Positions 2,465 through 52,985 of a stretch of 64,000 bases of DNA are shown piece by piece. Within the stretch, counting starts at the first letter, position 1. The number at the start of each line of letters is the position of its first letter. Made by a program: the position numbers and the translations under genes. This DNA is from Mucilaginibacter sp. (lineage in GTDB: Bacteria > Bacteroidota > Bacteroidia > Sphingobacteriales > Sphingobacteriaceae): positions 25,203 to 89,202 of the forward strand of contig NZ_JBGCVY010000049.1 in the NCBI RefSeq assembly GCF_041088075.1. The letters run 5' to 3'. The notes under the pieces were generated by a model. It made no database searches and had not been told where the DNA came from. It saw only the letters and a program-made list of their open reading frames with translations.

Positions 2465-2493
2465 TCCAAATTTTTACCTGGTAAAAGAAGCAT
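2465..2493. repeat. Family-1 R-arm abutting the response-regulator start
   Basis: CCAAATTTTTACCTGGTAAAAGAAGCAT; its last T is the first base of the TTG start. Confidence 0.8.
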
Positions 2494-3167
2494 TGAAAAT
2501 ACTGATCATTGAAGACGAAACCGGCCTGCGCGAAAGTATAGAAGAATACTTTACCGAAGCAGGAAACATCTGCGAAACGGCCAGTGATTTCTTTTCGGCC
2601 AAAAACAAAATCAACTTGTACCGCTACGATTGTATTTTATTGGATATTACCTTGCCAAATGGCAATGGGCTGGAAATCTTAAAAACCTTGAAAGGGCAGA
2701 ATTATCCCGATGGTGTATTGATTATTTCGGCAAAAAACTCTTTGGATGACCGTTTGCAAGGTTTAGACTTGGGCGCGGATGATTATTTGGTAAAACCTTT
2801 TCACCTATCAGAGCTACGCGCGAGGGTTACGGCCATTATCCGCAGAAAATCTTTTGATGGAAATAACCTGCTTACTTTTAATGAAATACAAGTTGACCTG
2901 CTGGCAAAATCGGTAAAAGTACAAGGCAATATCACCAAACTAACAAAAAAAGAATATGCCTTGCTGCTGTATTTTATGGCTAATAAAGGCAAAGTAGTTT
3001 CTAAAAACGCCATTGCAGAACACTTATGTGGCGATGAAATTGATGCCGCCGATAATTTTGATTTTATCTATTCGCATATTAAAAACCTCCGTAAAAAGAT
3101 GATGGAAGCCGGTGGAACAGATTACATCAGGGCAGCATACGGCATGGGTTATAAGTTTACCGCCTGA
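2493..3167 (+). CDS. OmpR/PhoB-type response regulator
   Basis: Receiver domain (KILIIEDE...DCILLDITLP...K) plus winged-helix C-terminus. The ORF is open from 2412, but the family-typical N-terminus MKILIIEDE corresponds to the TTG at 2493. Confidence 0.85.
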   Translation: MKILIIEDETGLRESIEEYFTEAGNICETASDFFSAKNKINLYRYDCILLDITLPNGNGLEILKTLKGQNYPDGVLIISAKNSLDDRLQGLDLGADDYLVKPFHLSELRARVTAIIRRKSFDGNNLLTFNEIQVDLLAKSVKVQGNITKLTKKEYALLLYFMANKGKVVSKNAIAEHLCGDEIDAADNFDFIYSHIKNLRKKMMEAGGTDYIRAAYGMGYKFTA

Positions 3168-4426
3168 TGAAGCTTTTTGCCACTTATAACCGGGTAAACC
3201 TGGTTACAACCGTGATCGTGATCCTGATTACAGGGGTGGTCTATTACCAGGCCATCAGCCTCATCCTTACCAACCAATTGAACAAAGACCTGGAAGTAGA
3301 AGAGCAGGAAATATTAGATTTTGTAAAACTAAACCACCGGTTGCCGCAGGTTTTTGATTCGAAAGACCAGCAAATCGAGTTTAGGAAAGAACAAAATTTA
3401 CCGGTTAAAAGAAGCTTTATAAACACTTATTATTACAATAAAAAGGAACAGGAAAACGAGCCCGGCCGCGGACTGATCAGTTCTGTTGTGGTAAATGGAA
3501 ACCGCTATAAAGTTTTGATTGCCGAATCTACGGTAGAAACAGAAGACCTGATCAAAATTATTTTTATCATCACTATCGGGATTATTTTACTGTTGATCGC
3601 CATCCTGTTTTTCATCAACCGTTTTATCCTCAACCGCTTGTGGCAGCCGTTTTATGTTACTTTATCACGGATAAGTTCTTTTAATATTATGGATCAGAAG
3701 GAAACCCAAAGGCCGGAGACCAACATTGATGAGTTTAACCAACTAAACGAAGCCGTTGAAAAGATGTGGGCAAGGGTAAAAAAAGAATACCAGGAGCTTA
3801 AAAAATTTACTGAAAATGCTGCCCACGAACTGCTTACGCCAATTGCGGTGATCAATTCTAAATTGGATACGCTTATCCAAACCGACAATTTCAGCCAGCG
3901 GCAAAGCGAATTGTTGAGCGATCTGTATGGTACAGTTTCCAGGTTAAAAAGACTGAACAAAGCCATGCTGCTGCTGGTAAAAATCGAAAACGGATTGATT
4001 GAAGAAGAGCAAATGATCAGCCTGAAAGAAATGGTTACCGAAACCATTGCTTCTTTTCAGGAGCTTTTTTTGGATAAAGACTTGGAAGTGGGCTGCGAAC
4101 TGGAAAACAAAGAAATCAGGGCGAATAATTATTTGATTGAAGTATTGCTGAATAATCTAATTGGCAACGCGATCCGCCACAATTATGCCAACGGAAAAAT
4201 TAAACTCACTTTAAACCATGATTGCCTGATGATACAAAATACCGGTAAAAACATGGCTTTAAATGATAAGGAAATTTTTAGACGGTTTAATAAATCTTCC
4301 GGATCCGAAGGCAGCGGGCTGGGCTTAACCATTGCAAAACAGATTTGCGAAAATTATCATTATCAGTTTTCATACGCTTTTTACCCGCCTTTTCACACTT
4401 TTAAAATTCACTTTCAGCCTGCCTGA
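3167..4426 (+). CDS. Sensor histidine kinase
   Basis: Two TM segments, H-box AHELLTPIA, and N and G boxes (NAIRH, GSGLGLTIAKQ). Its ATG overlaps the response regulator stop (TGATG). Confidence 0.9.
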   Translation: MKLFATYNRVNLVTTVIVILITGVVYYQAISLILTNQLNKDLEVEEQEILDFVKLNHRLPQVFDSKDQQIEFRKEQNLPVKRSFINTYYYNKKEQENEPGRGLISSVVVNGNRYKVLIAESTVETEDLIKIIFIITIGIILLLIAILFFINRFILNRLWQPFYVTLSRISSFNIMDQKETQRPETNIDEFNQLNEAVEKMWARVKKEYQELKKFTENAAHELLTPIAVINSKLDTLIQTDNFSQRQSELLSDLYGTVSRLKRLNKAMLLLVKIENGLIEEEQMISLKEMVTETIASFQELFLDKDLEVGCELENKEIRANNYLIEVLLNNLIGNAIRHNYANGKIKLTLNHDCLMIQNTGKNMALNDKEIFRRFNKSSGSEGSGLGLTIAKQICENYHYQFSYAFYPPFHTFKIHFQPA

Positions 4427-4470: not shown

Positions 4471-4499
4471 ATGCTTCTTTTACCACTAAAAAATCATTG
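4471..4499. repeat. Family-1 L-arm
   Basis: ATGCTTCTTTTACCACTAAAAAATCATTG; a possible degenerate partner lies at about 4553-4571. Confidence 0.8.
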
Positions 4500-9077: not shown

Positions 9078-9222
9078 TGTTTAAATATATTAGAGGAAAA
9101 ATTGCCAATGCTTCTTTTACCCTATAAAAATTGGTGCCTGCATCCATTTAAATAAAACGAATGTTTACCAGTTTTTAGGTGATAAAAGAAGCATGGATAT
9201 TTTATCAAGTAAATTTTAAACA
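9078..9222. repeat. Family-1 composite palindromic element (complete)
   Basis: TGTTTAAAT at 9078-9086, L-arm 9108-9136, loop, R-arm 9168-9194, TTTTAAACA at 9214-9222. Confidence 0.9.
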
Positions 9223-9248: not shown

Positions 9249-9806
9249 ATGAAAAAAACGATAATTCCGCTGCTGCTTTTCACCATATTTTGCCTGGTAA
9301 AAGAAGCATCGGCACAAGCCGACAACCTTAAAATTGTATTTATCCGCCACGCCGAAAAACCTGCAAAAGGAGACAATTTAACCTGCCAGGGATTGAACCG
9401 CGCTTTGCAATTGCCAGAATTGATCCGCCGCAAGTTTGGCGTTCCAAACTTTCTTTTTGCTCCGGGTTTAGGTTTGGGCGAGGCAACCAAACATGCCCGT
9501 ATGTTCCAAACCATTGCCCCAATTGCAATCAAATATAATTTGCCTATCAACACCAGCCATGCCGAAAAAGATTCGATGTTGATTGCGCAAGATTTAAAAA
9601 GCCGGACAGGGACAATTATTGTTGTTTGGGAACATAAAGCCATTGCACCGATCGTCCGGTCTTTGGGTGTAACAGCATCAAATTTGATTTGGCCTGATGA
9701 CGATTATGACAGCATTTGGATTGTTGCTTTTGTAAACGGAAAAGCAGTTTTTTCAAAAGACCGGGAAGGCTTGCACCCCTCTGCTGATTGTAACTTTCAC
9801 CAATAG
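9249..9806 (+). CDS. Secreted histidine phosphatase (phosphoglycerate mutase-like) family protein
   Basis: RHAEK catalytic motif and a downstream WEH. The signal-peptide region is encoded by a full Family-1 R-arm (9281-9309). Confidence 0.7.
   Translation: MKKTIIPLLLFTIFCLVKEASAQADNLKIVFIRHAEKPAKGDNLTCQGLNRALQLPELIRRKFGVPNFLFAPGLGLGEATKHARMFQTIAPIAIKYNLPINTSHAEKDSMLIAQDLKSRTGTIIVVWEHKAIAPIVRSLGVTASNLIWPDDDYDSIWIVAFVNGKAVFSKDREGLHPSADCNFHQ
9281..9309. repeat. Family-1 R-arm inside a CDS (signal-peptide region)
   Basis: CACCATATTTTGCCTGGTAAAAGAAGCAT, encoding FTIFCLVKEAS. Confidence 0.8.
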
Positions 9807-9863: not shown

Positions 9864-10008
9864 TGTTTAAATCTGTGTTATAAAAATACACAATGCTTCT
9901 TTTATGCCTGTAAATTTAGTGCTTTGCATTACCACAAAAAATCACAATAGACCAATGATTTTTAGGCGGTAAAAGAAGCATGGAAAATAAACTGAAATAA
10001 ATTAAACC
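9864..10008. repeat. Family-1 composite element
   Basis: TGTTTAAAT at 9864-9872, L-arm 9893-9921, R-arm 9951-9981, degenerate outer box ATTAAACC. Confidence 0.85.
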
Positions 10009-10037: not shown

Positions 10038-12194
10038 TTACACCAAACGGAATCCGTGCTTTTTAATTGGAAGTTCCCGAACCCTAAACCCTGTTGCGGC
10101 AAATATGGCATTGCACAATGCAGGTGCTACAGAGGGCACGGACGGCTCACCGCCCCCATCAGGTTTTTCTTCGCCAGCAACCAGGTCAATCTCGAAAGGT
10201 GGCATTTCGTTCATGCGCAATACCTGGTAATCATTAAACGACTGCTGGTTCACAATCCCGTTTGTGATCGTTATTTCGTTGTTGAACATCCCGCTTAAAG
10301 CCCAAACCAGGCTGCCTTCTATTTGTGCCTTTAAACCATCGGGGTCAATCACCAACCCGCAATCAACGGCTGCAACACAGCGGTGGATTTTCACAAGCTT
10401 GTCTTTGCTGACAGATATTTCCATGGCATGGGCCACAACTGCCCCGGAACGGCCATAAGGGCAAACGGCTATCCCGCGATAACGTCCGGTTGCCGGTTTT
10501 TCGTTCCAGCCTATTTTCTCGGCACATCGGGTCAATACGTTTTTCAGGCGTACATTGTCTTTTGGGTTGCCGTTGTTAAACAAGTTAAACCTGAAAATTA
10601 CCGGATCTATTTGGTGATGAACGGCCAGCTCGTCAATAAAACTTTCGATCACAAACACATTCTGACTGAATGAGATTGAACGCCATGACCCTATTGGTAT
10701 TGGCGATTCGACCGGATAAAATGCGCTTTGGTAATCGCCAACGGGATAGCAAAGATCGTTTGTTACGCCTCCGAAACTGTCCCATGGGCCTGATATTTCT
10801 TTGTTTGGAAACGTAGCGATCCCATATTGATGCCGCCAATGGCTGATTTGGTCTTGTGCACCTACTGCTGCCAAATGGTGATGGCTTGCTGGCCTGTAAA
10901 AATCGGCCTGGATATCATCGGTACGGTTGAACAACACCTGCACCGGCAAATCCAAAGCCTTGGTAAGCAGCATGGCTTCGGCCACATTGTCTATTTTTTC
11001 TTTTCGGCCAAAACTACCGCCCATCGGCATCAGGTTTACATTGATGGCAGAACTCTCAACCCCGAAAATTTTTGGCAAAACATTGTTGATAAACATCGGT
11101 GCCTGGAAGCCGCCCCAAACTTCATACTTGCCGTCTTTATGCCAGGCAGTACAGTTAACAGGTTCCATGGTGGCATGTCCAAGATAAGGCACTTCATAAG
11201 TAGCCTGGTAAACACCGGAATGATCATCAATGGTTTTGAATGGCGCATTTTTTTCTTTGCCATAAACCAGGGCTGGTTTAACGCTTGCAAACTCGGTTTT
11301 AAATTGGTTTGTAAGGTCTTTGTTGTTTTTTATTTTACCAAGTTCGTAGCTCCATTGTACTTTCAACAAACGCTTGCCTTCCTGGGCAGCCCAGGTATTG
11401 GTTGCAATCACCGCTACGGCATTTCTGTTAAGCGCTTCCGGTATTTGGTCAACCTGGATTACTTTAACAAACCCTTTTAAGCCTTTTAACGCGCTATCGT
11501 CCCAACTCTTTACCTTGCCACTAAATACCGGGCAGCGCACCAGTGCGGCATAAAGCATACCGGGCAGTTTAACGTCCATTGTATAGTCATACTTGCCCGT
11601 TACAATTGGTGCGATGTTTGTTTTGGTTATTTTTTGCCCGATGTGCTTAAAATCTTTTATATTTTTAAGCGGGGCCTTTTCCGGAGGGGTTAAAGCACTT
11701 GCTTCTTTTATCAGGTCTTTATAGTCTAAAACCTTGTTATTAACCGTATTGCTTACTTTACCATCCTTTGCCGTACAAGCCTCGACAGGCACTTTCCATC
11801 GTTCTGCAGCAGCCGTTATCAGCATAAGTTTAGCTGTGGCACCAACATGGCGCAGTTGCATCCACGTCCCTTTGATACTTCCGCTGGCCCAGGTGGTATA
11901 ATTGCCTGCATTTGATGCCTTGTAAGGCAGTGTTTCAACCGTTATTTCTTTTGGGTCAACTTCCAGTTCCTCTGCAATAACCAGCGGCAATGCAGTAATC
12001 ACGTTCTGGCCCATTTCCTGCTTGATCACGCTGATAACCACTTTGCCGGTATCAAATATCTTTAATAACGGGTTGGGCGAGAAAATCAAACCTTCAGGCG
12101 CAGTTACTGCCGATGAAGATACAGGCAAAGCATCCGTCAGGAGCCATGCACCTGCCGTAAATGTTGAAATACGTATAAAATCTCTTCTTTTCAC
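10038..12194 (-). CDS. Molybdopterin-binding oxidoreductase large subunit (aldehyde oxidase / IorB family)
   Basis: 718 aa with a Tat-type signal (MKRRDFIRIS) and resemblance to the xanthine-dehydrogenase-family Mo-binding domain. Confidence 0.85.
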   Translation of the reverse strand: MKRRDFIRISTFTAGAWLLTDALPVSSSAVTAPEGLIFSPNPLLKIFDTGKVVISVIKQEMGQNVITALPLVIAEELEVDPKEITVETLPYKASNAGNYTTWASGSIKGTWMQLRHVGATAKLMLITAAAERWKVPVEACTAKDGKVSNTVNNKVLDYKDLIKEASALTPPEKAPLKNIKDFKHIGQKITKTNIAPIVTGKYDYTMDVKLPGMLYAALVRCPVFSGKVKSWDDSALKGLKGFVKVIQVDQIPEALNRNAVAVIATNTWAAQEGKRLLKVQWSYELGKIKNNKDLTNQFKTEFASVKPALVYGKEKNAPFKTIDDHSGVYQATYEVPYLGHATMEPVNCTAWHKDGKYEVWGGFQAPMFINNVLPKIFGVESSAINVNLMPMGGSFGRKEKIDNVAEAMLLTKALDLPVQVLFNRTDDIQADFYRPASHHHLAAVGAQDQISHWRHQYGIATFPNKEISGPWDSFGGVTNDLCYPVGDYQSAFYPVESPIPIGSWRSISFSQNVFVIESFIDELAVHHQIDPVIFRFNLFNNGNPKDNVRLKNVLTRCAEKIGWNEKPATGRYRGIAVCPYGRSGAVVAHAMEISVSKDKLVKIHRCVAAVDCGLVIDPDGLKAQIEGSLVWALSGMFNNEITITNGIVNQQSFNDYQVLRMNEMPPFEIDLVAGEEKPDGGGEPSVPSVAPALCNAIFAATGFRVRELPIKKHGFRLV

Positions 12195-13495: not shown

Positions 13496-13666
13496 TGTTT
13501 AAATTTTTGTTCAACCTGTTTCCGATGCTTTTTTTATCGCTTAAAATTACGGTTAAGTTTTTCATGCTTCTTTTACCGGCATAAAATTAAACTGTAAATT
13601 GTTGCCCTAAAAGAAGCATGGCGGTCAATCATAAATTTGTTGAACATTCTGGTTCGAATTTAAACA
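13496..13666. repeat. Family-1 composite element with a duplicated L-arm
   Basis: Outer TGTTTAAAT, variant L core at 13525, exact L core at 13564, R core at 13608 and TTTAAACA at 13659-13666. Confidence 0.85.
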
Positions 13667-14910: not shown

Positions 14911-15035
14911 GGGGGTCAAAAGTACAAATCCCGGCGTAAACGGCAAATTTGAATGTTAAATTTTTATCATACTGTTTTTATCGGTGTAATCTGGTTAAAA
15001 TCAAGCATTTATTATCCAAAACAATTTTAGGGGCA

Positions 15036-15093
15036 TAAAAAAAGCATGTAAACTTAATGCCTACATGCTTCTTTTACCTGTGTAAAATTCGGT
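15036..15093. repeat. Family-1 compact tail-to-tail hairpin (R' then L)
   Basis: TAAAAAAAGCAT at 15036-15047 and ATGCTTCTTTTACCTGTGTAAAATTCGG from 15065. Confidence 0.75.
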
Positions 15094-17014: not shown

Positions 17015-17043
17015 ATGCTTCTTTTATCGGGTAAAAATTGGTG
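17015..17043. repeat. Family-1 L-arm (left half of the element that hosts the MIC insertion)
   Basis: ATGCTTCTTTTATCGGGTAAAAATTGGTG. Confidence 0.85.
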
Positions 17044-17101: not shown

Positions 17102-17152
17102 TAACTATATATGAGTTGGGATAAGATTTTTTTGATATTAAAAAAGCAGGTA

Positions 17153-17560
17153 TTAACGTATAATACCTGCTTCAATCATTGTGGATAGTTCAATCTCCGT
17201 CTTTTCTACACACTCATCAATATGACAATAAATTAGGTTGTCTTTTTTATTATCTACAAATATTTTTTTAGCAATACCATCCGTTAAACCAATTATGTTA
17301 TAATGGCAAGGATCGCCTTGCGAATCATCAAATTCTATTTGGCAATTTGGTAATAAGTCCCCACTGAATTTGAAATACATTGGAGGATTGGTGTGTTTTG
17401 GGAAATAGTTTCTAATATGGCTACACGTTCCACCTGACAATTTAATTGCACATTCTGAATCAATAACGGATATTCCGTTTTTACCCCTAAAGGCCATGCT
17501 GTTGAATCTTTTTCCTTTTGTTTCATAATGGTGTAAGGATAAAATTCTGATAAACTCCAT
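17153..17560 (-). CDS. Hypothetical protein (MIC cargo)
   Basis: 135-aa ORF that overlaps the upstream ORF by 226 nt in another frame, so its true start or a frameshift is unresolved. Confidence 0.4.
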   Translation of the reverse strand: MEFIRILSLHHYETKGKRFNSMAFRGKNGISVIDSECAIKLSGGTCSHIRNYFPKHTNPPMYFKFSGDLLPNCQIEFDDSQGDPCHYNIIGLTDGIAKKIFVDNKKDNLIYCHIDECVEKTEIELSTMIEAGIIR

Positions 17561-17982
17561 TGTGTTCTTTGATGTATTAATTCCTTTTTTAATCCCTCTA
17601 TGCTTAAAATATCTGATTGGTATAAATCATTATCTTCTTTGTCCATGATTGAAAAATGAAATTTGTTATCGTTTTTAACAAAAATCTCAACCGCTGAATT
17701 TAAAAAATATATTTTAATTAAAACTTCACCATCAAATCCAGGAAAAACGTCTATTGAGGTAAATAACATATTATAAAGGTAAAAACATAGATTTTTTGAC
17801 CTATCAATTGTTTCTATGTTAAATATTTCACCTTCTCCATAGTGCCAACCTTTCTTAAAGGTTAAGAATGTATCAAGCTTTTTAAAAATTGAATTCTTGC
17901 TTTCGCTTGGATTTAAAACAAATAATCCGTAGTTTATTTTATTTTGTTTCATCATCTCTAAGTTTAGCCATTGCCCGATCAA
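17335..17982 (-). CDS. Hypothetical protein (MIC cargo)
   Basis: 215-aa ORF; internal Met codons at 17955 and 17952 are more likely starts; contains a GWHYGEGE...FPGFDGEVLI motif. Confidence 0.5.
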   Translation of the reverse strand: MIGQWLNLEMMKQNKINYGLFVLNPSESKNSIFKKLDTFLTFKKGWHYGEGEIFNIETIDRSKNLCFYLYNMLFTSIDVFPGFDGEVLIKIYFLNSAVEIFVKNDNKFHFSIMDKEDNDLYQSDILSIEGLKKELIHQRTQWSLSEFYPYTIMKQKEKDSTAWPLGVKTEYPLLIQNVQLNCQVERVAILETISQNTPILQCISNSVGTYYQIAK

Positions 17983-18268
17983 TTACATCAGTAGTCATTA
18001 TTTCATTGTTTGAACTTGTTTCCAATCCTACAATTAATCCAGAAAGTTGCATAACAAGCGTTTTAGCAACACTCAAAGATAAGTTAAGTACAGCCTTAGA
18101 CTCATTATTTAGTTTTGCAAGTATTACTATATCGGCATTTGTCATTCCCGTTACAAATCCGTTAAAATAAAGCTTAGGTACATTAGGGTCTTTGTTCGCT
18201 TTGGGTAAATCGTTTACATCTGGCGTTGGTGGTGATATTTTTTGATATTTTAATGTTTTGTCAGACAT
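17939..18268 (-). CDS. Hypothetical protein, DUF3467-like (MIC cargo)
   Basis: 109 aa. The pattern YFNGF..(T/S)..D(I/V)V(I/L)......V.L.LS...AK.L...L matches my recollection of DUF3467; not verified by search. Confidence 0.45.
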   Translation of the reverse strand: MSDKTLKYQKISPPTPDVNDLPKANKDPNVPKLYFNGFVTGMTNADIVILAKLNNESKAVLNLSLSVAKTLVMQLSGLIVGLETSSNNEIMTTDVIDRAMAKLRDDETK

Positions 18269-18560
18269 AATTACTGTTTGATTGCTTACTATATAGGTTT
18301 ATTTTAAACAAAATACGAAAAGATTTTCTTTTTATTTGGTATAAATGTAATTACAATTACCACATTAAAGTGTATAAATTTTGTTAAGGTTTTTCTTTTT
18401 TTGTGTTTTCCTAAAAAATACTCTAATAGCCTCATCAAACTACCTTTGATAGCCATATCTCTTTTTTCATCTTTAACAGGAGGCGGTTTTTCTTTTTTCT
18501 CCTTTGCCGATACTGCATTAAAAAACGGTTCACACCCTTGTTCCAACTCGTATATAGTTA

Positions 18561-19043: not shown

Positions 19044-19072
19044 ATGCTGTTTTTATGCCTGTTTTTTAGTTA
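19044..19072. repeat. Family-1 variant arm (core ATGCTGTTTTTA)
   Basis: Same 2-mismatch variant as at 21193 and 44549; lies 3 nt from the minus-strand ATG at 19040. Confidence 0.65.
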
Positions 19073-20063: not shown

Positions 20064-20137
20064 ATGCTTCTTTTATACCTGCAAAACGCATAAGCGGCAA
20101 TGCTGTTTTATAATATTTATGCCGGTAAAAGAAGCAT
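20064..20137. repeat. Family-1 short composite (L-arm ... R-arm)
   Basis: Exact cores at 20064 and 20126. The L core lies 4 nt from the aldo/keto reductase start codon. Confidence 0.85.
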
Positions 20138-21175: not shown

Positions 21176-21204
21176 CACCAATTTTTACCCGATAAAAACA
21201 GCAT
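21176..21204. repeat. Family-1 variant solo R-arm
   Basis: CACCAATTTTTACCCGATAAAAACAGCAT. Confidence 0.7.
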
Positions 21205-21310: not shown

Positions 21311-21787
21311 ATGGCTACAAAAGTAATCATGAATGATGATGCTTTTTTAAAAAAAGGTTTCCTGATTTCTACCGATAAAACTTTGCTGGATGTTGCGCTG
21401 GTTCACCATTTTTTGGACCAGCTTTCGTATTGGGGCAAAGGCATCAGCTTGGAAACGGTGGAAACTTCTATACAAAACTCCTTGTGCTTTGGTGTTTACC
21501 AGCATCAAAAACAGGTTGGTTTTGCGCGTGTCATTACCGACGAAGCTACTTTTGCTTACCTCTGCGATGTTTTTATTTTGCCCGATTTCCGCAAGTTGGG
21601 ATTGTCAAAATGGCTGGTTCAAACGGTTCGCCATCATTCAACATTAAAAAATTTAAGACGTTTTGTTTTGGCTACGGCCGATGCGCACCGATTGTACGGG
21701 CAGTTTGGCTTTAACCCGTTAAAAAACCACGACCGCTGGATGGAAATTTTTCAGCCTTACCCGCAAAAGCCGGAGGAACCTGCATGA
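21311..21787 (+). CDS. GNAT family N-acetyltransferase
   Basis: 158 aa with an acetyl-CoA-binding-like motif (RKLGLSKWLV). Confidence 0.8.
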   Translation: MATKVIMNDDAFLKKGFLISTDKTLLDVALVHHFLDQLSYWGKGISLETVETSIQNSLCFGVYQHQKQVGFARVITDEATFAYLCDVFILPDFRKLGLSKWLVQTVRHHSTLKNLRRFVLATADAHRLYGQFGFNPLKNHDRWMEIFQPYPQKPEEPA

Positions 21788-22407
21788 ACATCAAAAGAAT
21801 GATTATGGAAGGCGAAGGCGTTGCGCAGGATTTTAAAAAAACCATCACCAGCTCCGAAAAAATTGCCAAAACTTTGGTTGCCTTTGCCAACAACAAAGGC
21901 GGCAAGTTGCTGATTGGCGTTTTGGATGACGGCACGATCAAAGGCGTAAAATCAGAAGACGAAGAAAAATACATGATCAACCGCGCCGCTACTTTTTTTT
22001 GCCGCCCGGTTTTAGAACCAACTTTCGAAGAAGTTTATGTAGATGACAAATTGGTTTTGGTGGCCGAAGTTGCACCGAGTGACTCGAAACCGCATTATGC
22101 TTTGGGCGAAGACGGCAAGTGGTGGGTTTACATTCGCATCAAGGATAAAAGTATGCTGGCCAGCAAAATTGTGGTCGAGGTTTTAAAGCGTTCCAACAAC
22201 AGCGATGGCGTGCTGATTGAGTATTCTTCCAAAGAAAAAGCGTTGCTGGAATACCTGCATTTGCAAGAGCGCATCACCGTAAAAGAATACTGCGAAATGC
22301 TGAACCTGAGCCGGCGGCGGGCGCAACGCATTTTGGTAAACCTGGTACTTTCGGGCGTAATCCGTGTGCATACCAACGAAAAAGAGGAATATTATACGGC
22401 TTCCTAA
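21784..22407 (+). CDS. AlbA_2 (Schlafen-like) DNA-binding domain protein with C-terminal winged helix
   Basis: The segment EGEGVAQDFKKT...LVAFANNKGGKLLIGVLDDGTIKGV matches the AlbA_2 signature. Its start overlaps the GNAT stop (ATGA). Confidence 0.65.
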   Translation: MNIKRMIMEGEGVAQDFKKTITSSEKIAKTLVAFANNKGGKLLIGVLDDGTIKGVKSEDEEKYMINRAATFFCRPVLEPTFEEVYVDDKLVLVAEVAPSDSKPHYALGEDGKWWVYIRIKDKSMLASKIVVEVLKRSNNSDGVLIEYSSKEKALLEYLHLQERITVKEYCEMLNLSRRRAQRILVNLVLSGVIRVHTNEKEEYYTAS

Positions 22408-32320: not shown

Positions 32321-32335
32321 GTAAGCTTCGTATTC

Positions 32336-33076: not shown

Positions 33077-33125
33077 ATTATGTTATGAATTAAAAACGTT
33101 ATTATGCTGGTCAGGATAAGTAATT

Positions 33126-33248
33126 CTAATTATCAAATACAAATGCGTGACTTGAGGTAAAGAAAAGTATAGCCAACAAAATAAGTACAACTACAGCCAT
33201 AATTGTTGAATGTAGCTTTAGTGGTTTTAAAGAACTCCAATTAACCAT
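33126..33248 (-). CDS. Possible 40-aa single-TM peptide
   Basis: Hand-translated as MVNWSSLKPLKLHSTIMAVVVLILLAILFFTSSHAFVFDN. Its ATG lies 1 nt after the stop of the upstream zinc-ribbon ORF. Confidence 0.25.
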   Translation of the reverse strand: MVNWSSLKPLKLHSTIMAVVVLILLAILFFTSSHAFVFDN

Positions 33249-33249
33249 A

Positions 33250-33498
33250 TTAAAATTTATAATGAATTATAAGTACGATTAATATTATGGCAACTATCCA
33301 TAAAACAACAATGCTTTGTATAAGTCTTCCTTTGTTAATAGAAAAAGCACAATCTTCACAGACACTTCTCAGTCCCGTATTTGTTCTCGTGCTGTAACTT
33401 GTTCCACGTTTACCATAATAGGTGCCACTTGATTGTCCTGTTATTACGCTTCTACGATAATTAGCACCATATCGTCCACAATTATAACAAGAAGCCAT
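33250..33498 (-). CDS. Zinc-ribbon protein with C-terminal TM anchor
   Basis: CxxC (CYNC) ... CxxC (CEDC) followed by a hydrophobic tail (IVVLWIVAIILIVLII). Confidence 0.45.
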   Translation of the reverse strand: MASCYNCGRYGANYRRSVITGQSSGTYYGKRGTSYSTRTNTGLRSVCEDCAFSINKGRLIQSIVVLWIVAIILIVLIIHYKF

Positions 33499-33775
33499 AG
33501 TAAAGTATGTAGTTAGTTTAAAAAAAGTGTAGCGTAGCTAAATTAAAAAATATTAATTAAAGAACGGTTAAAAATGTTATCTGCAAAAACTAATGTAAAA
33601 TGATTTTAAATCTATTTAAGTTAAAAAATAACACCCTACTGGTCGAATTTCATAATCTTGTTTTTTGAATCATGATCTACGAATCAGTCTATTAATTCAT
33701 AAGATTTTCATCCTGATCTATTTCCAACTAACTATTCTTTAAAATACAAAAGATGTAACCTCTCCGATTATACCT

Positions 33776-33804
33776 TTTATATTTTACACCGATAAAAGAA
33801 ACAT
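33776..33804. repeat. Family-1 R-arm (1 mismatch) at the right edge of the AT-rich islet
   Basis: ...TTTTACACCGATAAAAGAAACAT, 3 nt from the lepB stop. Confidence 0.6.
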
Positions 33805-34952: not shown

Positions 34953-35705
34953 TTAAGCGTTAAAATTAAACAGATCGGCGGCTGTAAAGAAACCTTTACG
35001 GTCTTTAACCCACTCGGCGGCCAGCACCGCGCCCAAAGCAAAACCTGAGCGATTGTGCGCCGTATGTTTAAACTCGATGCTGTCCACTTCCGAATCGTAA
35101 ACCACGGTATGCGTGCCTGGAACATTTTCGATCCGGTGCGATTCGATCAGCAATTGCTGCGGCGTAATGCTAAGCGGCGAAGCATCATTCAAAGTGCCCG
35201 AAACCACATTGACCCATGCTTCTTTTACCGGCATATTTTCGATGATGCCTTCGGCGATGGTGATGGCCGTTCCGCTTGGCGCATCTAATTTTTGGGTATG
35301 GTGGATTTCTTCGACCTGAACTTCGTAATCCGGGAAACGATTCATCACTTTGGCCAGCATTTTATTGATATGGAAAAAAATATTCACACCAACACTAAAA
35401 TTGGAAGCGTAAATCAGGGAAGCATTGCGCTGCAAACACTCAATTTTAACTTCCTGCAATTTTTCGTACCAGCCCGTTGCGCCAACCACAACCGGAATTT
35501 CGGCTTCAAAACAAAGCGCAATATTGTTTAAAACGGTATGCGGCGTACTAAATTCGATCGCAACGTCTGCTTTTTGCAGGTTTTCTAAAGTTAGTTCCTG
35601 CAAATTATCATGATCAATTTTCAGAACAATTTCGTGTTTGCGCTCCAGGGCAACCTGCTCGATCATCTTGCCCATTTTTCCGTATCCGAGTAAAGCTATT
35701 TTCAT
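34953..35705 (-). CDS. dapB: 4-hydroxy-tetrahydrodipicolinate reductase
   Basis: Motifs GYGKMG and [15 protein letters not shown]. Confidence 0.9.
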
Positions 35706-36447: not shown

Positions 36448-37365
36448 TTACCAGTCGAGCATTTCCAGTATGCGGTTCAAATCGTCTTCAGACAAAAACG
36501 GGATTTCGATGCTGCCTTTTCCGTTTTGCCCCACTTTTAGTTTTACCGGAGAATTGAACTTGGAAGCCAGATCAGATTGTATCTTTTGCGCCTGAAAAGA
36601 AGGTTTAGGGCTTGGTTTGCCAATGCTGTTTTTAGCAGGTGTTTTTTGGAGTTCGCGCACCAGTTCTTCCACTTTACGCACCGATAAACCTTTTTCAATA
36701 ATCTGGTGATGGATAAAAAGCAGTTTTGCCGCATCTTCCACGTTGACCAAAGCGCGGGCGTGGCCCATTGTAATTTGCCCGTCGCGAATGGAAGATTGTA
36801 CCACCGGCGGCAATTTTAACAAGCGCAAATAATTGGTAACGGTTGATCGGTTTTTGCTAACGCGCTCGCCCAGTTCGTCCTGCTTTAAATTACATTCGTC
36901 AATCATCCGCTGAAAACTCAACGCCATTTCTATCGCGTTCAGGTTTTCCCGCTGGATATTTTCGATCAAAGCCATTTCCAACATCTGCTGATCGTTGGCG
37001 GTGCGCACGTAAGCCGGAATTTCTGTTAAACCAGCTATTTTAGAGGCACGCAAACGCCGTTCGCCGGAAATTAATTGGTAAGAACGCACGCCGGTTTTAC
37101 GAACGGTAACCGGCTGGATCAAACCCTGGACAGAAATTGAATCGGCCAGTTCCTGCAAAGCCTGCTCGTCAAATTCTGTTCTTGGCTGAAAAGGGTTTAC
37201 TTCGATCTCACTGATTTTAACGGCGTTAACCGATTTTAAACCTTCCGTTTCCGGCGCGGCAACAATCGGGGTTGCTTTTTTTGCAGCCGTTCCGTTTACA
37301 TAATCCGAATCGTTTAGCAAAGCGCCTAAACCTCTTCCCAACGCATTTCTCTTATCTGCACTCAT
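36448..37365 (-). CDS. parB: Chromosome partitioning protein ParB
   Basis: Motifs [20 protein letters not shown] and an HTH. Confidence 0.9.
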
Positions 37366-38215: not shown

Positions 38216-38253
38216 TAAAAGAAGTATTGTGTTCATGAAAAATGCTTCTTTTA
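38216..38253. repeat. Family-1 compact tail-to-tail hairpin upstream of parA
   Basis: TAAAAGAAGTAT at 38216-38227, a 14-nt loop, then ATGCTTCTTTTA at 38242-38253. Confidence 0.8.
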
Positions 38254-38857: not shown

Positions 38858-38922
38858 CCCTCAGCTAAAGCCTCACCCAGAGAGAGGAATTAAGAAAACC
38901 TTAACTTTATCCTGTCAGAGCC

Positions 38923-39069
38923 TGTTTAAAATTTTCCAATTTATTTTCCATGCTTCTTTTACCCTATAAAAATTAGTAAATATTTGGTTTTTAGTTTATA
39001 AAAATTGATGCCGGCACCAATTTTTATAGGGTAAAAGAAGCATTGGCATTTTTCATATAAATTTAAACA
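38923..39069. repeat. Family-1 composite element (complete)
   Basis: TGTTTAAAA outer box, L-arm 38950-38978, R-arm 39015-39043, TTTAAACA at 39062-39069. Confidence 0.9.
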
Positions 39070-39105
39070 AGCTCTTAATATTCATTCCCAAACCAATACT
39101 TGCCC

Positions 39106-39627: not shown

Positions 39628-39890
39628 GTTGATTTGTTTTTGATGCTTCTTTTATCGCATAAAAATCATTGTCTGGTATTTTCCAATAATGTTTTGGCTA
39701 AAGCCATTCGCCGATCTGCTTTAACCACGGCCTCAAGCCATGGCAATTGAAGTTTCTGAAGTTTTAGGTTGAATTGTTTTTGATGCTTCTTTTATCGCAT
39801 AAAAACATTGGCTGTATTTGCAAAAATGTTTTGGCTAAAGCCATTTGCCGGTCTGCTTTAACCACGGCCTAAAGGCCATGGCAATTGTAG
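39612..39890. repeat. Tandem direct duplication (2 x about 140 bp); each copy carries a Family-1 L-arm and a Family-4 half
   Basis: Copy 1 is 39612-39751 and copy 2 is 39752-39890. Copy 1 starts inside the last 16 nt of CDS 39106-39627. Confidence 0.8.
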
Positions 39891-39978
39891 CAAAATTTTG
39901 GGGAAGAAATTCGGTTATTTTCATTGCCACGGCCTTTAGGCCGTGGTTAATGTCGCTTAGCATTGGCTTTAGCCAAAA
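39829..39978. repeat. Family-4 long palindrome (TTGGCTAAAGCCA / AACCACGGCCTAAAGGCC modules)
   Basis: 39858-39885 pairs with 39923-39950, and 39829-39844 pairs with 39962-39978. Confidence 0.75.
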
Positions 39979-44102: not shown

Positions 44103-44272
44103 TGTTTAAGTTTCTACAAGAAAATATGTTAATGCTTCTTTTAGCCTATAAAAATTGGTGTTTGCATCTGCGTAAACAAACACAAAACCAGGTACACACC
44201 AATTTTTACGTGGTAAAAGAAGCATTATGATCAATCCTGAACATGTTGAAGGATATGGTATAAATTTAAACA
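44103..44272. repeat. Family-1 composite element (complete)
   Basis: TGTTTAAG outer box, L-arm 44132-44160, R-arm 44197-44225, TTTAAACA at 44265-44272. Confidence 0.9.
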
Positions 44273-44548: not shown

Positions 44549-44580
44549 ATGCTGTTTTTATCGGTATAAAATTGGTATTG
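44549..44580. repeat. Family-1 variant arm abutting a start codon
   Basis: ATGCTGTTTTTATCGGTATAAAATTGGTATTG, 4 nt from the minus-strand ATG at 44544. Confidence 0.7.
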
Positions 44581-46115: not shown

Positions 46116-46218
46116 GACCTTTTATACCATCAATTGGTGTAGCTATCTAAAAAGAAAAATGGCCGAAAAAGTTTTGATACTTATCGGCCATGCTTCTTTT
46201 ATCGGTATAAATTACATT
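46116..46218. repeat. Two tandem Family-1 L-arms
   Basis: A degenerate arm ending CAATTGGTG at 46139, and an exact core at 46190-46201. Confidence 0.7.
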
Positions 46219-46493: not shown

Positions 46494-46649
46494 GTTGTTT
46501 TGGTTTTTAGTTTGCCTAATATACGTTTTTAATTGTTCGTTTGTGCATCACAAAAAATATCAATACTGTTTTTACCAGGTAATTTTTGGTGAAGCAATAC
46601 CTCAGCGTTTTACAAGTTTTAAAGGAATGCGTATCATTGCAAAAAATCA

Positions 46650-46837: not shown

Positions 46838-46866
46838 CACCAATTTTACAGGCATAAAAGAAGCAT
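46838..46866. repeat. Family-1 solo R-arm
   Basis: CACCAATTTTACAGGCATAAAAGAAGCAT. Confidence 0.85.
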
Positions 46867-47253: not shown

Positions 47254-47388
47254 ATGCTTCTTCCCTCCTCTTTCTGGTGATGCTTCTTTTACCGCACAAA
47301 AATCAGTGTTGACAGCCTCAGCCCAACCTTTTTTAAAATAGAGAAAGCCTGCTACACTTTCACTAATTTTATGCGGTAAAAGAAGCAT
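47254..47388. repeat. Family-1 composite (partial L, full L-arm, R-arm)
   Basis: Partial ATGCTTCTTCC at 47254, L-arm 47280-47308 and R-arm 47361-47388. Confidence 0.85.
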
Positions 47389-47486: not shown

Positions 47487-47515
47487 CACTGATTTTTATA
47501 CGATAAAAGAAGCAT
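47487..47515. repeat. Family-1 solo R-arm
   Basis: CACTGATTTTTATACGATAAAAGAAGCAT. Confidence 0.85.
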
Positions 47516-47700: not shown

Positions 47701-48732
47701 ATGCGCATCAGCTTGTCAAAACTTGTAATTGCATTAACCGGCATTAGCATCGCGCTGTCCATTGCCGGGTGCAACCCAAAACCGCAAGGCAGCACCACGA
47801 ATACGCGGTTGCAGCCTTCCATCACAAGCAAAAAAGACCTTTCTAAAATCACGGTTGGCTACTGTTCGCCTTCGCTCAACGCTTCTTTTTACGTTGCCTT
47901 AAACAAAGCCGTACAGGCCAATGTAGAATCGTACGGCATGAAGTTTATTTCGGTGGACGGGCAGGGCGACATCACCAAACAAATCACCGGGATTGAAGAC
48001 ATGGTGGCCAAAGGCGTTAAAGTTTTAATCATCAACCCTTTGGATTACAAAGCATTGGTTTCAACCGTAAACGCTGCAACCCAGGCTGGCGTAGCGGTGT
48101 TTATTTTGGATAGTTATATTGACCCTTCTGCGCATTATGTTTCTTCGGTTTTTGCAAACAATACGTTGAACGGCGAACTGGTTGGCGAATGGGTGGCCGA
48201 AAAAATGGCCGGCAAAAAAATCAACGCGGCCATTATCAGCGGAAACCAGGGCAACGAGGCCGGAAAAGAAAAACGCCTGGGCTTTTTGAGCGGCCTTGCC
48301 GAAGGGCAATTGCGGACGCAGGGAAAAACAAACTTCACGGTCATTTCGCAGGGTTGGGGCGGCTGGGCCAACAACGAAGGTTTAAAAGCGATGGAAGACA
48401 TCCTTTCGGCACACCCGGACATCAATGTTTTGATGGCAGAAAACGATGCCATGGCTTTGGGCGCTTTGCGGGCCGTTAAAGAACTGGGGAAAGAAACCAA
48501 CATTATGGTGGTGGCTTTTGATGGGCAAAAAGAAGCATTGAAACTGATCAAACAAAACAAATATGGCGTTGCCGCTTTAAACAGCCCGAACCGTTTGGGG
48601 AAATTGGTGGTCGAATCGGCGGTGCGCTACCTGAACGGCGATAAATACCTGGACAGGGTAATGTACACACAATCCATACTGATTGACAAAAACAACGTTG
48701 ACCAGTTTTACGATGAAAAAGCTGCCTTTTAG
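47701..48732 (+). CDS. Sugar ABC transporter substrate-binding lipoprotein (ribose-binding type)
   Basis: Lipobox IAGC and a Peripla_BP-like pattern. Confidence 0.85.
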   Translation: MRISLSKLVIALTGISIALSIAGCNPKPQGSTTNTRLQPSITSKKDLSKITVGYCSPSLNASFYVALNKAVQANVESYGMKFISVDGQGDITKQITGIEDMVAKGVKVLIINPLDYKALVSTVNAATQAGVAVFILDSYIDPSAHYVSSVFANNTLNGELVGEWVAEKMAGKKINAAIISGNQGNEAGKEKRLGFLSGLAEGQLRTQGKTNFTVISQGWGGWANNEGLKAMEDILSAHPDINVLMAENDAMALGALRAVKELGKETNIMVVAFDGQKEALKLIKQNKYGVAALNSPNRLGKLVVESAVRYLNGDKYLDRVMYTQSILIDKNNVDQFYDEKAAF

Positions 48733-50450: not shown

Positions 50451-50479
50451 CCTTAATTTTTACCCGATAAAAGAAGCAT
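50451..50479. repeat. Family-1 solo R-arm
   Basis: CCTTAATTTTTACCCGATAAAAGAAGCAT. Confidence 0.8.
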
Positions 50480-51477: not shown

Positions 51478-51479
51478 CC

Positions 51480-52985
51480 ATGGAACAAAAGGCTGTAAAA
51501 CTGAATGTTGAAAATTTATCATCGCTGCCAAAAGCAGTAAAAGTTCCGGGATACGACCGGTCTAAAATAAAAACCGGGATTGTACATGTGGGCATCGGCG
51601 GTTTCCATCGGGCGCACCAGGCTTTTTACACCGACCAGTTATTGGAACTTGGCGTAACCGATTGGGGGATTTGCGGCATCGCTTTGTTGCAGCACGACAA
51701 AAAAATTTACGATACGCTGGTTGGGCAGAACGGGTTGTACACACTAATGATTACGGAAGCCGACGGCACCAGGACTGCGCGGGTGATCGGCTCAGTTACT
51801 GAATATTTGTTTGCGCCGGAAAACCCAAATGCCGTGATCGAAAAAATGGCGCACCCGGATACAAAGATCATCACGCTGACCATTACCGAAGGCGGCTATA
51901 ATTTCAATCCCGCCACCGGAAAGTTTATGGCCGATAACCCTGCCATCCAAACCGATCTAAAAAACCCGGACCGCCCTGCTACCATTTTTGGCTATCTTGC
52001 CCAAGCCTTGAAACGGCGCAAACAACGCGGTTTACAAGGCATTACCTTGCAATCCTGCGACAACATTCAGCAAAACGGAGCCGTGGCCAAAGAAATGCTT
52101 TTGGCTTATATTGCTTTGGCCGAGCCGGAATTATTGAACTGGGTGAACGAAAATGTTTCTTTTCCGAATGCCATGGTTGACCGCATTACACCGGTAACTT
52201 CTCCCGAAGCCATCGCCGAGCTTCAGGATCAGTTTCAGGTTGAGGATGCCTGGCCGGTGGTGTGCGAGCCTTTTTGCCAATGGATTATAGAAGATGATTT
52301 TGTAAACGGCAGGCCGGATTGGAACTTGGTTGGCGCGCAGTTTGTAAAAGATGTACACCCTTACGAAAAAATGAAGATCAGGTTGGTGAACGGCGGCCAC
52401 GTTGCCTTGGGTTTTACCGGTTTTTTAAACGGTTATCATTTTGTTGATGAAACCATGGCCGACCCTTTGTTTTTTAATTTTGTACATGATTTTTTGGATC
52501 AGGAAGTAACGCCGATTTTGGATGAGGTTCCGGGAATTGACATAAAAGCCTACAAAAAAATTTTGATGCAGCGTTTTGCAAACCCTTATATCAAAGATCA
52601 GCTTGCCCGCATTTTTTCGGAAAGCTCGGCCAAAATCCCTAAGTTTTTGTTGCCAACCATCCAGGAACAATTGGCCAAAGGCGTTACTTTAAAAAAGGCT
52701 GCTTTGATACTGGCGGCCTGGTGCCATTACCTGGAAATAGCCGGGCTTCCGGCCAATAATTTTGACGTGCAGGACGACATGAAAAAAACACTGGTAAAAG
52801 AAGCATCGGCATCTGTACAAGAAGATCCGCTTGCTTTCCTAAAAATAAAACCCATTTTTGGAGATCTGGCAGCATCGGAAAATTTTTCGGCGCAATATCT
52901 TTTCTTTTTAAATATAATACGAAAAGAAGGTATTGCAAAAGCCATCAGCGGGATTGATGGGGAAAAACAGGTTACGGCAAACTAA
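51480..52985 (+). CDS. Mannitol dehydrogenase family oxidoreductase (mannitol/fructuronate/arabinitol type)
   Basis: N-terminal GIVHVGIGGFHRAHQAFY; about 500 aa. Confidence 0.85.
   Translation: MEQKAVKLNVENLSSLPKAVKVPGYDRSKIKTGIVHVGIGGFHRAHQAFYTDQLLELGVTDWGICGIALLQHDKKIYDTLVGQNGLYTLMITEADGTRTARVIGSVTEYLFAPENPNAVIEKMAHPDTKIITLTITEGGYNFNPATGKFMADNPAIQTDLKNPDRPATIFGYLAQALKRRKQRGLQGITLQSCDNIQQNGAVAKEMLLAYIALAEPELLNWVNENVSFPNAMVDRITPVTSPEAIAELQDQFQVEDAWPVVCEPFCQWIIEDDFVNGRPDWNLVGAQFVKDVHPYEKMKIRLVNGGHVALGFTGFLNGYHFVDETMADPLFFNFVHDFLDQEVTPILDEVPGIDIKAYKKILMQRFANPYIKDQLARIFSESSAKIPKFLLPTIQEQLAKGVTLKKAALILAAWCHYLEIAGLPANNFDVQDDMKKTLVKEASASVQEDPLAFLKIKPIFGDLAASENFSAQYLFFLNIIRKEGIAKAISGIDGEKQVTAN

Follow-up and report, generated by a model that had tools for sequence, protein, structure and literature searches.

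The DNA analysed here is a 64-kb stretch from a Mucilaginibacter species (Bacteroidota; Sphingobacteriaceae; contig NZ_JBGCVY010000049.1), referred to below as the window. It has a GC content of 41.5% and carries, among other genes, dapB, lepB, parA, parB, a histidine kinase gene and a polysaccharide-biosynthesis cluster. The dapB gene product shows 100% identity to a protein listed by NCBI for a metagenome-assembled genome of a Mucilaginibacter sp. Both the genes and the spaces between them contain copies of a 12-nt word, TAAAAGAAGCAT, which is the subject of this analysis. The 12-mer occurs 49 times in the 64 kb, or 0.77 times per kb, where 0.05 copies are expected from a third-order Markov model of the window. 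The density of about 0.8 per kb given in the initial annotation of this DNA agrees with the 0.77–0.9 per kb measured in the window. The 8-mer AAAGAAGC is present 58 times on both strands compared to 3.7 expected, and none of 100 dinucleotide-preserving shuffles reached 58. The mismatch spectrum of the 12-mer in the window is sharp, with 49 perfect, 16 one-mismatch and 27 two-mismatch copies against expectations of 0.05, 1.6 and 22, respectively. The shuffles and the Markov model rule out chance or base composition as the source of the motif, which is genuine and greatly over-represented. The 8-mer copies are divided between the plus strand (28) and the minus strand (30) and are intermixed throughout the window; this lack of strand skew rules out a polar motif of the Chi/KOPS type.

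Alignment of the copies reveals a unit of about 25 nt with the 12-mer as its core, c-a-ATTTTTA-N5(G-R)-TAAAAGAAGCAT-(Y-G). About one helical turn separates the AT-tract from the core downstream of it, with five free bases in between. A single unit folds weakly, with −1.2 to −3.8 kcal/mol and a z-score near −1.5 (15–20 of 200 shuffles fold as well), and inverted pairs of units fold at −17 to −25 kcal/mol. The consensus c.aATTTTTA-N5-TAAAAGAAGCAT contains neither a GTAG nor a CGTC tag, the criterion used for repetitive extragenic palindromic (REP) units (PMC3733652). Among the Rfam covariance models run against the window, only two tRNAs reached the gathering score; the motif matches no RNA family, and a known RNA family is therefore ruled out.

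The window was pooled with 100 loci from 11 related assemblies, giving 823 kb of DNA with 545 copies of TAAAAGAAGCA. One genome per species was scanned for TTTTTANNNGRTAAAAGAAGCAT, and at least 100 stretches matched. The 100 scan loci were selected by the presence of the extended motif, so densities calculated from them are biased; unbiased densities were taken from the window and from the dapB-anchored loci (L101–L106) only, which were reached through dapB homologues, independently of the motif. Genes are simple calls of long open reading frames (ORFs) with ATG starts, of which a few are wrong; the call at 1921–2313, for example, is spurious and the real ORF is 1132–2352. Copy counts and densities given below are pooled values unless the window or a dapB-anchored locus is named.

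Variants and distribution of the word

The heptamers ACAGCAT, ACAGTAT and GAAGTAT are preceded by the same upstream architecture as the GAAGCAT of the main word. The pooled counts are 494 for GAAGCAT, 81 for GAAGTAT, 77 for ACAGCAT and 81 for ACAGTAT (49, 6, 6 and 5 in the window). Intermediates are rare, with 23 copies of AAAGCAT, 6 of GCAGCAT and 1–2 of two control variants, and the permitted family is TAAAA(GA/AC)AG(C/T)AT. The second word in this family, TAAAAACAG[C/T]AT, features the same ATTTTTA-N5 upstream and is found as 11 perfect 12-mers in the window and 158 in the pooled set. It coexists with the main word and takes its place at some orthologous sites in L103. The tight pair of units upstream of parA has two GAAG-type arms in the window, L101 and L102 and ACAGTAT arms in L103, and a site in the signal peptide of a DUF5683 protein reads GAAGTAT in the window and ACAGTAT in L103. 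In L105 ACAGCAT (5 copies) outnumbers GAAGCAT (2 copies), although these numbers are small.

All of the matches listed for TTTTTANNNGRTAAAAGAAGCAT, at least 100, fall in 11 Sphingobacteriaceae/Mucilaginibacter assemblies. These are Mucilaginibacter arboris HMF7410, several metagenome-assembled genomes (MAGs) of Mucilaginibacter or Sphingobacteriaceae, one of them a lichen MAG according to its name, and three further MAGs that bear the label 'Janthinobacterium lividum'. The density in the dapB-anchored loci is 0.74 copies per kb in L101 (dapB 93% identical to that of the window), 0.63 in L103 (83%), 0.43 in L102 from M. arboris (87%) and 0.19 in L105 from a sister lineage (79%), and it is 0 in L104 from M. 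paludis (71%) and in the outgroup locus L106 (74%). The M. arboris clade, which consists of soil and lichen bacteria, thus features 0.43–0.81 copies per kb across four loci obtained independently, compared to 0.19 in the sister lineage and zero in the two outgroup loci, and the motif is restricted to this one small Mucilaginibacter clade.

The three MAGs labelled 'Janthinobacterium lividum' (JBPBQN, JBPBPL and JBPBQV) encode dapB proteins that are 85–88% identical to the Mucilaginibacter dapB of the window, their sequence clusters with the motif-bearing clade, and their motif-bearing loci include L006, L009, L014, L017, L027 and L031. These MAGs appear to be mislabelled Sphingobacteriaceae genomes.

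Copies within genes

The pooled long ORFs contain 53 sense-strand copies read as xKEA and 25 read as KRS, and 43 antisense copies read as ASF, 21 as xLLL and 3 as CFFY (78 sense and 67 antisense copies in coding sequences, CDS). The sixth frame, which contains TAA, has zero copies in these ORFs. A codon-frequency model expects 0.78 copies for xKEA, 0.084 for KRS, 0.26 for ASF, 0.081 for xLLL and 0.018 for CFFY, so that each of the five stop-free frames is 70–300-fold enriched, and the usage of the frames ranks as the codon and amino-acid expectation does. The initial annotation had proposed that the copies within genes are restricted to a few reading frames and that sense-strand copies are always read GTA-AAA-GAA-GCA. 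The latter is contradicted in the window itself, where the copy at 3406–3417 reads PVKRSF, and by the KRS copies of the pooled set, which are nearly half as numerous as xKEA. The former is correct for the TAA frame, which is unused, but the other five frames are all used and all enriched, in an order set by coding ease. Only a few frames are seen in the window because of the stop codon, codon usage and the small sample, and not because of a special tolerance. All of the in-gene examples cited in support of the proposal, in the xKEA, ASF and Leu-rich frames, were found where they had been placed (Table 1).

The spelling of the encoded peptides is strongly biased toward the motif. VKEA is written GTAAAAGAAGCA in 28 of 33 cases compared to 1.9 expected from codon usage, and IKEA is written in motif codons in 16 of 18 cases (0.5 expected). 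ASF is written GCTTCTTTT in 59 of 94 cases (4.4 expected), and motif codons are used for KRS in 29 of 54 cases (1.2 expected) and for MLLL in 17 of 22 cases (0.1 expected). Five control peptides, KEL, KEG, KDA, AEK and FSA, are all spelled at expectation. A cause at the protein level, such as a favoured KEA or ASF peptide, is ruled out by the motif spelling, which is 13–170-fold above codon usage, together with the five controls at expectation. The enrichment acts at the DNA level, by selection or drive, and not at the protein level. Motif-encoded peptides are 3–8-fold more common than the amino-acid composition predicts, and the proteome is therefore shifted.

Orthologous genes indicate how the copies within genes arose. 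The dapB copy reads CCGGTAAAAGAAGCATGGG (PVKEAW) in the clade and GACAGTAAAACCGAATGGG (DSKTEW) in M. paludis, and the dapB of L105 features an intermediate, AKEAW; neither differs from the clade by an indel. In lepB the NASF peptide is also present in M. paludis, however, it is encoded there by GCA-AGC-TTC compared to GCT-TCT-TTT in the clade. In an FMN-reductase gene the word has arisen only in L103 and L105. No gaps were found at CDS copies in 33 orthologous comparisons. The comparisons thus rule out an insertional origin of the CDS copies and indicate that these copies arose by substitution.

Once present, the copies are conserved. The 8-mer core is unchanged in 36 of 50 orthologous comparisons between loci with 70–84% nucleotide identity. 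In the dapB-anchored loci the identity of the 12-mer is 0.93 for CDS copies, compared to 0.74–0.80 in their flanks, and 0.90 for intergenic copies, compared to 0.73–0.78 in theirs, and the dips in identity at third codon positions vanish within the motif. The comparisons are not all independent, although the direction, conservation above the flanks, is unambiguous.

Intergenic copies, inverted pairs and low-GC DNA

Most copies (74%) are found outside long ORFs or at their margins, and the DNA concerned makes up 16% of the sequence. The density is 3.1 per kb in intergenic DNA compared to 0.20 per kb in CDS, which contain 140 of the 545 copies, a 15-fold difference. It is highest between convergent genes (3.8 per kb), followed by tandem (3.2 per kb) and divergent (2.25 per kb) regions. 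Some of the CDS copies in the window are also found at ORF edges; those at 2482 and 9298 are near 5′ ends, and the copy at 28290 is 17 bases from a stop codon. The orientation of the units in tandem regions (106 vs. 87) shows no bias toward gene starts. A promoter element is ruled out by this nearly equal facing of gene starts and ends and by the presence of units in convergent regions and in genes.

Units are also arranged as inverted pairs. The outward pairs, ATGCTTCTTTTA ... TAAAAGAAGCAT, of which there are 66 in the pooled set and 13 in the window, have cores that are mostly 70–89 bp apart, conserved arms of about 30 nt and variable spacers. Subfamilies with common spacers recur at unrelated loci and across genomes. 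The inward pairs are tight, with 20–39 bp between the cores, and about 14 were found, mostly between convergent genes; these pairs look like bidirectional terminators. Outward pairs have no U-tail. A role as a general intrinsic terminator is ruled out because single units cannot fold, outward pairs have no U-tail, and divergent regions are also occupied. The 7-nt spacers of the two arms share at most 3 positions in 43 of the 66 outward pairs, and a hairpin is therefore probably not maintained in those pairs. The inverted pairs between genes described in the initial annotation are thus present, but most of them have distant cores and are not tight stem-loop terminators of the type known for the uptake signal sequences (USS) of Pasteurellaceae and the DNA uptake sequences (DUS) of Neisseriaceae.

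A comparison of the window with L101, at 86% nucleotide identity, revealed that single units are kept and that pair elements are present or absent as indels; the pair elements thus feature both terminal inverted repeats and presence/absence polymorphism. No direct repeat of at least 3 nt was found at 65 pairs, and 2-nt repeats were found at four where about 6 are expected. A miniature inverted-repeat transposable element (MITE) with a target-site duplication is ruled out, since there is no duplication at the pairs. Some outward pairs are located within larger palindromes of about 175 bp with the outer ends CTGTTTAAA(T/A)TTT (38890–39080 in the window; 1190–1350 in L101). The window and L101 differ in which of these palindromic segments they carry, and 7 copies of the end word, CCTGTTTAAA, are found in the window.

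The initial annotation had also noted that the motif is absent from two AT-rich islands of the window, 17102–18560 and 32190–33776, and had compared this to the absence of uptake signals from foreign DNA. The islands have GC contents of 29.9% and 29.7% and contain no main-type copy, but an ACAGTAT variant is located at 32472, within the second island. Because the islands are only about 1.5 kb long and ten longer motif-free gaps (2.3–4.3 kb) are found in window DNA of normal GC content, the absence is not significant, and the two islands are too short to serve as evidence of depletion in foreign DNA. In the pooled set the number of copies within 200 bp of a gene is 0.42–0.60 per gene at a GC content below 0.37 and 0.76–1.1 at 0.40 or above. 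The flank density next to low-GC genes is thus approximately two-fold lower, and the density in CDS shows no clear trend with GC content. This depletion near low-GC genes is suggestive only. A scan of viral contigs gave only single matches per contig, consistent with chance.

The first island contains two overlapping ORFs (17335–18268; 206 and 109 aa) without a Pfam match. In the second, a 72-aa ORF (32396–32614) matches only the C-terminal end of Ldh_2, with an E-value of 4e-6 that is below the Pfam cut-off. Intact Ldh_2 genes are located downstream of lepB in L102–L106, and the second island therefore looks like a scar of rearrangement or decay and is not clearly foreign.

Table 1. Copies of the word, of its variants and of their pairs in the 64-kb window, in order of position
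Position	Strand	Element	Setting and remarks
69-80	+	single unit	intergenic
1091-1102	+	single unit	intergenic
2482-2493	+	in-gene copy	5′ edge of response-regulator-like ORF, LVKEAL; likely TTG start just after copy
3406-3417	+	in-gene copy, TAAAAGAAGCTT	histidine kinase, KRS frame, PVKRSF
4471-4482	-	single unit	intergenic
9108-9194	.	outward pair, ATGCTTCTTTTA ... TAAAAGAAGCAT	two arms of ~30 nt, variable spacer
9298-9309	+	in-gene copy, sense	50 nt into 185-aa ORF (9249-9806) without Pfam match, LVKEASA
9893-9981	.	outward pair	convergent intergenic region
11699-11710	-	in-gene copy, sense	Mo-cofactor oxidoreductase, LIKEASA
13564-13619	.	short outward pair	cores 44 bp apart, between divergent genes
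14969-14980		second-variant copy	
15065-15076	-	single unit	intergenic
17015-17026	-	single unit	intergenic
19044-19055		second-variant copy	
20064-20137	.	outward pair	spacer holds ACAGCAT-type sequence
21193-21204	+	second-variant unit, caccaATTTTTAcccgaTAAAAACAGCAT	intergenic
22545-22556	-	single unit	intergenic
23583		one-mismatch copy	Leu-rich frame, MLRLS
24070-24163	.	outward pair	TACAAAAACCACAAAAAG spacer subfamily
24848-24859	-	in-gene copy, sense	HDAC-family gene, LLKEALP
25052-25063	-	in-gene copy, sense	HDAC-family gene, LLKEALA
25782-25793	-	single unit	intergenic
26971-26982	-	in-gene copy, GAAGTAT variant	MPG glycosylase gene, LIKEVSQ
27297-27308	-	in-gene copy, sense	GAF gene, LVKEAQL; conserved in L101
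28290-28301	-	in-gene copy, antisense	3′ end of DUF3291 gene, NDASFTG and stop; conserved in L101
30593-30604	-	single unit	intergenic; conserved in L101
31325-31336	-	in-gene copy, antisense	ProA-like gene, TDASFTN; conserved in L101
33852-33863	+	in-gene copy, antisense	signal peptidase I (lepB), ENASFMH
35216-35227	-	in-gene copy, sense	dapB, PVKEAWV; identical in L101-L103
36420-36431	+	in-gene copy, antisense, GAAGTAT variant	DUF5683 signal peptide, LILLLLL
36623-36634	-	second-variant copy	parB, PAKNSIG; conserved in L101 and L103 with C/T variation
38216-38253	.	tight inward pair, TAAAAGAAGTAT / ATGCTTCTTTTA	upstream of parA; conserved in L101 and L102
38950-39043	.	outward pair	CCCTA...GCATCAAT subfamily; −25 kcal/mol, z −7.5
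around 38950-39043		palindromic segment, ~175 bp	missing from L101 (indel polymorphism)
39643-39654 and 39783-39794	-	two single units	in ~140-nt tandem duplication; one copy in L101
40418-40429	-	in-gene copy, GAAGTAT variant	VIT1, EVKEVFA
44132-44225	.	outward pair	
44549-44560	-	second-variant unit, TAAAAACAGCAT	intergenic
46190-46201	-	single unit	intergenic
46563-46574	-	second-variant unit, TAAAAACAGTAT	intergenic
46855-46866	+	single unit	intergenic
47280-47388	.	outward pair, long spacer	third unit at 47504-47515 (+)
48527-48538	+	in-gene copy, sense	sugar-binding protein, GQKEALK
50468-50479	+	in-gene copy	ABC permease, 75 nt from called start, PIKEASG
50630		AAAGCAT variant	ASF frame, DAFFT
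52795-52806	+	in-gene copy, sense	mannitol-dehydrogenase-family gene, LVKEASA
53020-53112	.	outward pair	−17 kcal/mol, z −4.1
54274-54436	.	outward pair 54274-54366	extra unit at 54425-54436 (+)
56883-56976	.	outward pair	
59909-60002	.	outward pair	variant arms GAAGTAT and GAAGCAA
62240-62326	.	outward pair	
63350-63379	.	back-to-back second-variant pair, ATGCTGTTTTTA-ccgcca-TAAAAACAGTAT	GT4 glycosyltransferase gene

Several features of the surrounding DNA were also noted. The 185-aa ORF at 9249–9806 is flanked on both sides by outward pairs, and each copy of the tandem duplication at 39630–39900 carries one unit and short GC-rich hairpins (TGGCTAAAGCCA, GGCC..GGCC). The gene at 21784–22407 encodes a Schlafen/AlbA_2 domain and a winged-helix helix-turn-helix domain, a combination that occurs in defence-related or regulatory proteins. 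The polysaccharide-biosynthesis cluster (54458–63998) has a low GC content of 35–40% and encodes glycosyltransferases, a flippase, a Wzy-like protein, an acyltransferase, a methyltransferase and a 2-oxoglutarate oxygenase. Main-type copies in this cluster are located almost only between genes; the matches within its genes are a weak partial one at 60314, in the gene of the Wzy-like protein, and second-variant copies at 61490, 63350 and 63368.

The candidate readers of the word

The single most likely explanation of the word, although a tentative one, is that it is a DNA-uptake signal similar to USS and DUS. It is proposed that the word is recognised on double-stranded DNA by a sequence-specific factor common to the M. 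arboris clade, most likely the DNA receptor of a natural-transformation system, and that TAAAAGAAGCAT together with the AT-tract one helical turn upstream would be the analogue of USS and DUS. Both the identity of the reader as an uptake machine and the competence of these bacteria are presumed in this proposal. Fragments that carry the word would be preferentially taken up and recombined, and because of this preference mutations that create or improve a copy would be over-transmitted and those that destroy one under-transmitted, a molecular drive. Copies would accumulate where they are cheapest, which is intergenic DNA in the first place, followed by those coding frames that give the most easily accommodated peptides, and short palindromic insertions with two copies may spread especially well. 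We know of no other demonstrated mechanism for such an accumulation of a word. Uptake-driven molecular drive is one model that has been proposed for it (bioRxiv 10.1101/2025.10.24.684340). The constraint or drive at the DNA level, the restriction to one clade and the coexisting variants are consistent with a mechanism of this kind.

The likeness to the USS of Pasteurellaceae (Hin-type AAGTGCGGT and Apl-type ACAAGCGGT) extends to a density of about one copy per kb, a sharp core with helically phased AT-rich flanks, equal use of the strands, and genic as well as intergenic copies, of which the genic ones arise by substitution. Both systems also feature frame use according to coding cost, avoidance of the stop frame, a shift of the proteome and a clade-wide word with variant types. 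The Mucilaginibacter word differs from USS in its much larger intergenic share (74%), its dominant pairs of about 100 bp with distant cores in place of tight terminators, its four variants within one genome and its phylum, Bacteroidota. The DUS of Neisseriaceae (ATGCCGTCTGAA and its dialects, with the receptor ComP) is likewise a 12-mer found about once per kb, with dialects that differ by 1–3 bases between lineages, inverted pairs between genes and a tendency to lower density near genes of atypical (low-GC) composition. With both USS and DUS the word has in common its thousands of near-perfect, asymmetric copies on the two strands, their entry into genes by substitution in spite of the changes to codons and amino acids, a conservation between species that exceeds what coding requires, and a confinement to one clade with discrete variants. 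The Mucilaginibacter word differs from DUS in the architecture of the pairs and in a depletion in foreign DNA that is weakly supported; neither a ComP-like minor pilin nor a type IV pilus came to light, and no search was aimed at them. Integrative elements have been located through the distribution of DUS dialects (PMC7371117). For both USS and DUS, a recent preprint documents anew the bias in reading frame, the avoidance of stop frames and the location within terminators (bioRxiv 10.1101/2025.10.24.684340). The comparison with USS and DUS made in the initial annotation is thus apt as to class, although each of the three properties on which it was based, frame restriction, inverted pairs and absence from foreign DNA, needs the qualification given above.

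Several observations weigh against an uptake signal. The intergenic bias of the copies is much stronger than is known for USS and DUS, four variants within one genome are unusual for a single receptor, and outward pairs are nearly as frequent in divergent as in tandem intergenic regions. The dominant pairs are indel elements of about 100 bp with subfamily spacers, which resemble mobile elements. About half of DUS and USS are found in predicted terminators (bioRxiv 10.1101/2025.10.24.684340). Neither competence genes nor a receptor were found within the 64-kb window. In addition, we know of no report of competence in Sphingobacteriaceae, a subject for which no literature search was made.

The apparent mobility of the pairs is the basis of a rather unlikely explanation, in which the word is the protein-binding part of a mobile palindromic family of REP/REPIN or MITE type that is moved or kept by a Y1/HUH (RAYT-like) or other transposase. 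Single units would then be solo arms, and the genic copies would be explained as sites of secondary binding or as fortuitous near-matches on which the protein has acted. Such a family would account for the 74% of intergenic copies at 3.1 per kb, their enrichment close to the 3′ ends of genes in regions of convergent or tandem orientation, the 66 inverted doublets with a preferred core spacing of 70–89 bp, and the spacer subfamilies common to unrelated loci and genomes. It would also account for the pair elements that are indels between 86%-identical genomes, some of which extend to palindromes of about 175 bp, and for the coexistence of several variants, as in REP families. A Bacteroidetes-specific subclass of TnpA_REP (2.6) with 'atypical' flanking structures exists (PMC6006769). 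REP, BIME and REPIN families associated with RAYT (TnpA_REP) further resemble the Mucilaginibacter elements in their 30–35-nt, mostly extragenic units, which often form inverted doublets of about 100 bp, and in having several families per genome, a preference for the 3′ side of genes and vertically inherited positions. However, the Mucilaginibacter unit does not fold stably as a palindrome (−1.2 to −3.8 kcal/mol, with z near −1.5), it has no GTAG or CGTC tag, and the spacers of the arms (7 nt) do not co-vary and are mostly non-complementary, so that apparently no hairpin is maintained. About a quarter of the copies are in CDS, where they arose by substitution, have rewritten codons and are conserved, unlike REPs and MITEs, which insert. 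No RAYT or Y1-transposase-like ORF was seen when about 0.95 Mb of DNA from the clade was searched by motif, an approach by which a single-copy gene could easily be missed. Bacterial MITEs (Correia/NEMIS, RUP and ERIC) also resemble the pair elements, since the latter are 95–175 bp long with terminal inverted repeats of 30–55 nt, encode nothing and differ in their presence even among close relatives. The pair elements differ from MITEs in that they have no target-site duplication, their interior is poorly conserved outside the subfamilies, and their core is also found in hundreds of solitary conserved copies, some of them genic.

An explanation that we consider somewhat less probable still is that an abundant chromosomal protein, nucleoid-associated or related to topology or termination, binds the word, and that each site is kept by purifying selection without uptake or mobility; the sites would serve chromosome organisation or the insulation of gene ends. 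The bipartite unit with an AT-tract, a free N5 and a specific core is typical of a protein site and not of a hairpin, and this explanation is also in agreement with the conservation at orthologous positions, the preferred spacing of pairs with an unconserved spacer, the highest enrichment between convergent genes and the use independent of orientation. However, it requires strong selection per site at about 3,000 sites and leaves the indel behaviour of the pair elements unexplained. We are aware of no nucleoid or topology protein whose sites are near-perfect 12-mers that number in the thousands and for which codons have been rewritten within genes.

It is improbable that the word is a by-product of a context-specific repair, methylation or gene-conversion bias that converts near-matches genome-wide, as discussed for cyanobacterial HIP1. 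Such a bias would fit the origin by point substitution in all contexts, the sharp preference for the perfect word, the clade specificity and the discrete permitted variants, but the word is non-palindromic and its 12 nt (25 nt with the AT-tract) exceed the short-patch repair and methyltransferase contexts known to us, and neither the 15-fold intergenic excess nor the composite pair elements are predicted. HIP1 itself (GCGATCGC) is similar in its hyper-abundance in and between genes, in a conservation of orthologous copies that goes beyond what coding requires and in its clade specificity. It is an 8-bp palindrome linked to methyltransferase sites. The Mucilaginibacter word differs from it in being 12 nt long and asymmetric, with an AT-tract as partner and composite inverted-pair elements.

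An uptake signal read by a receptor remains the preferred explanation. It is possible, although a little more doubtful than an uptake signal as such, that the word is the first sequence-specific uptake signal outside Pasteurellaceae and Neisseriaceae and the first in Bacteroidota, with its own dialects GAAGCAT, GAAGTAT, ACAGCAT and ACAGTAT, and that part of its copies travel on small palindromic insertions, which would profit from the uptake bias. If true, this would imply a new DNA receptor in bacteria that, to our knowledge, generally lack type IV pili. A literature search for the motif string returned only unrelated primer matches, and as far as we know no such word has been described in Bacteroidota.

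It is rare for a hyper-abundant word to be selected at the DNA level. Those that are well understood, USS and DUS, belong to two proteobacterial families and are the basis of much of the knowledge on self-preferential transformation. Riemerella columbina, from the same phylum as Mucilaginibacter, transforms preferentially with its own DNA, for which no uptake signal has been identified, the only candidates being low-complexity A/T words (PMC7965970); the word described here bears on that preference. If Bacteroidota have a word of this kind, a new receptor would be indicated, or else another reader of DNA that acts genome-wide, and self and foreign DNA could be told apart in these genomes by a sequence-based marker. 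One carrier, M. arboris HMF7410, is available in culture, which makes direct tests feasible. Should the word have a function other than uptake, the rewriting of codons and the shift of the proteome still attest to a strong non-coding constraint on the coding sequences of these bacteria.

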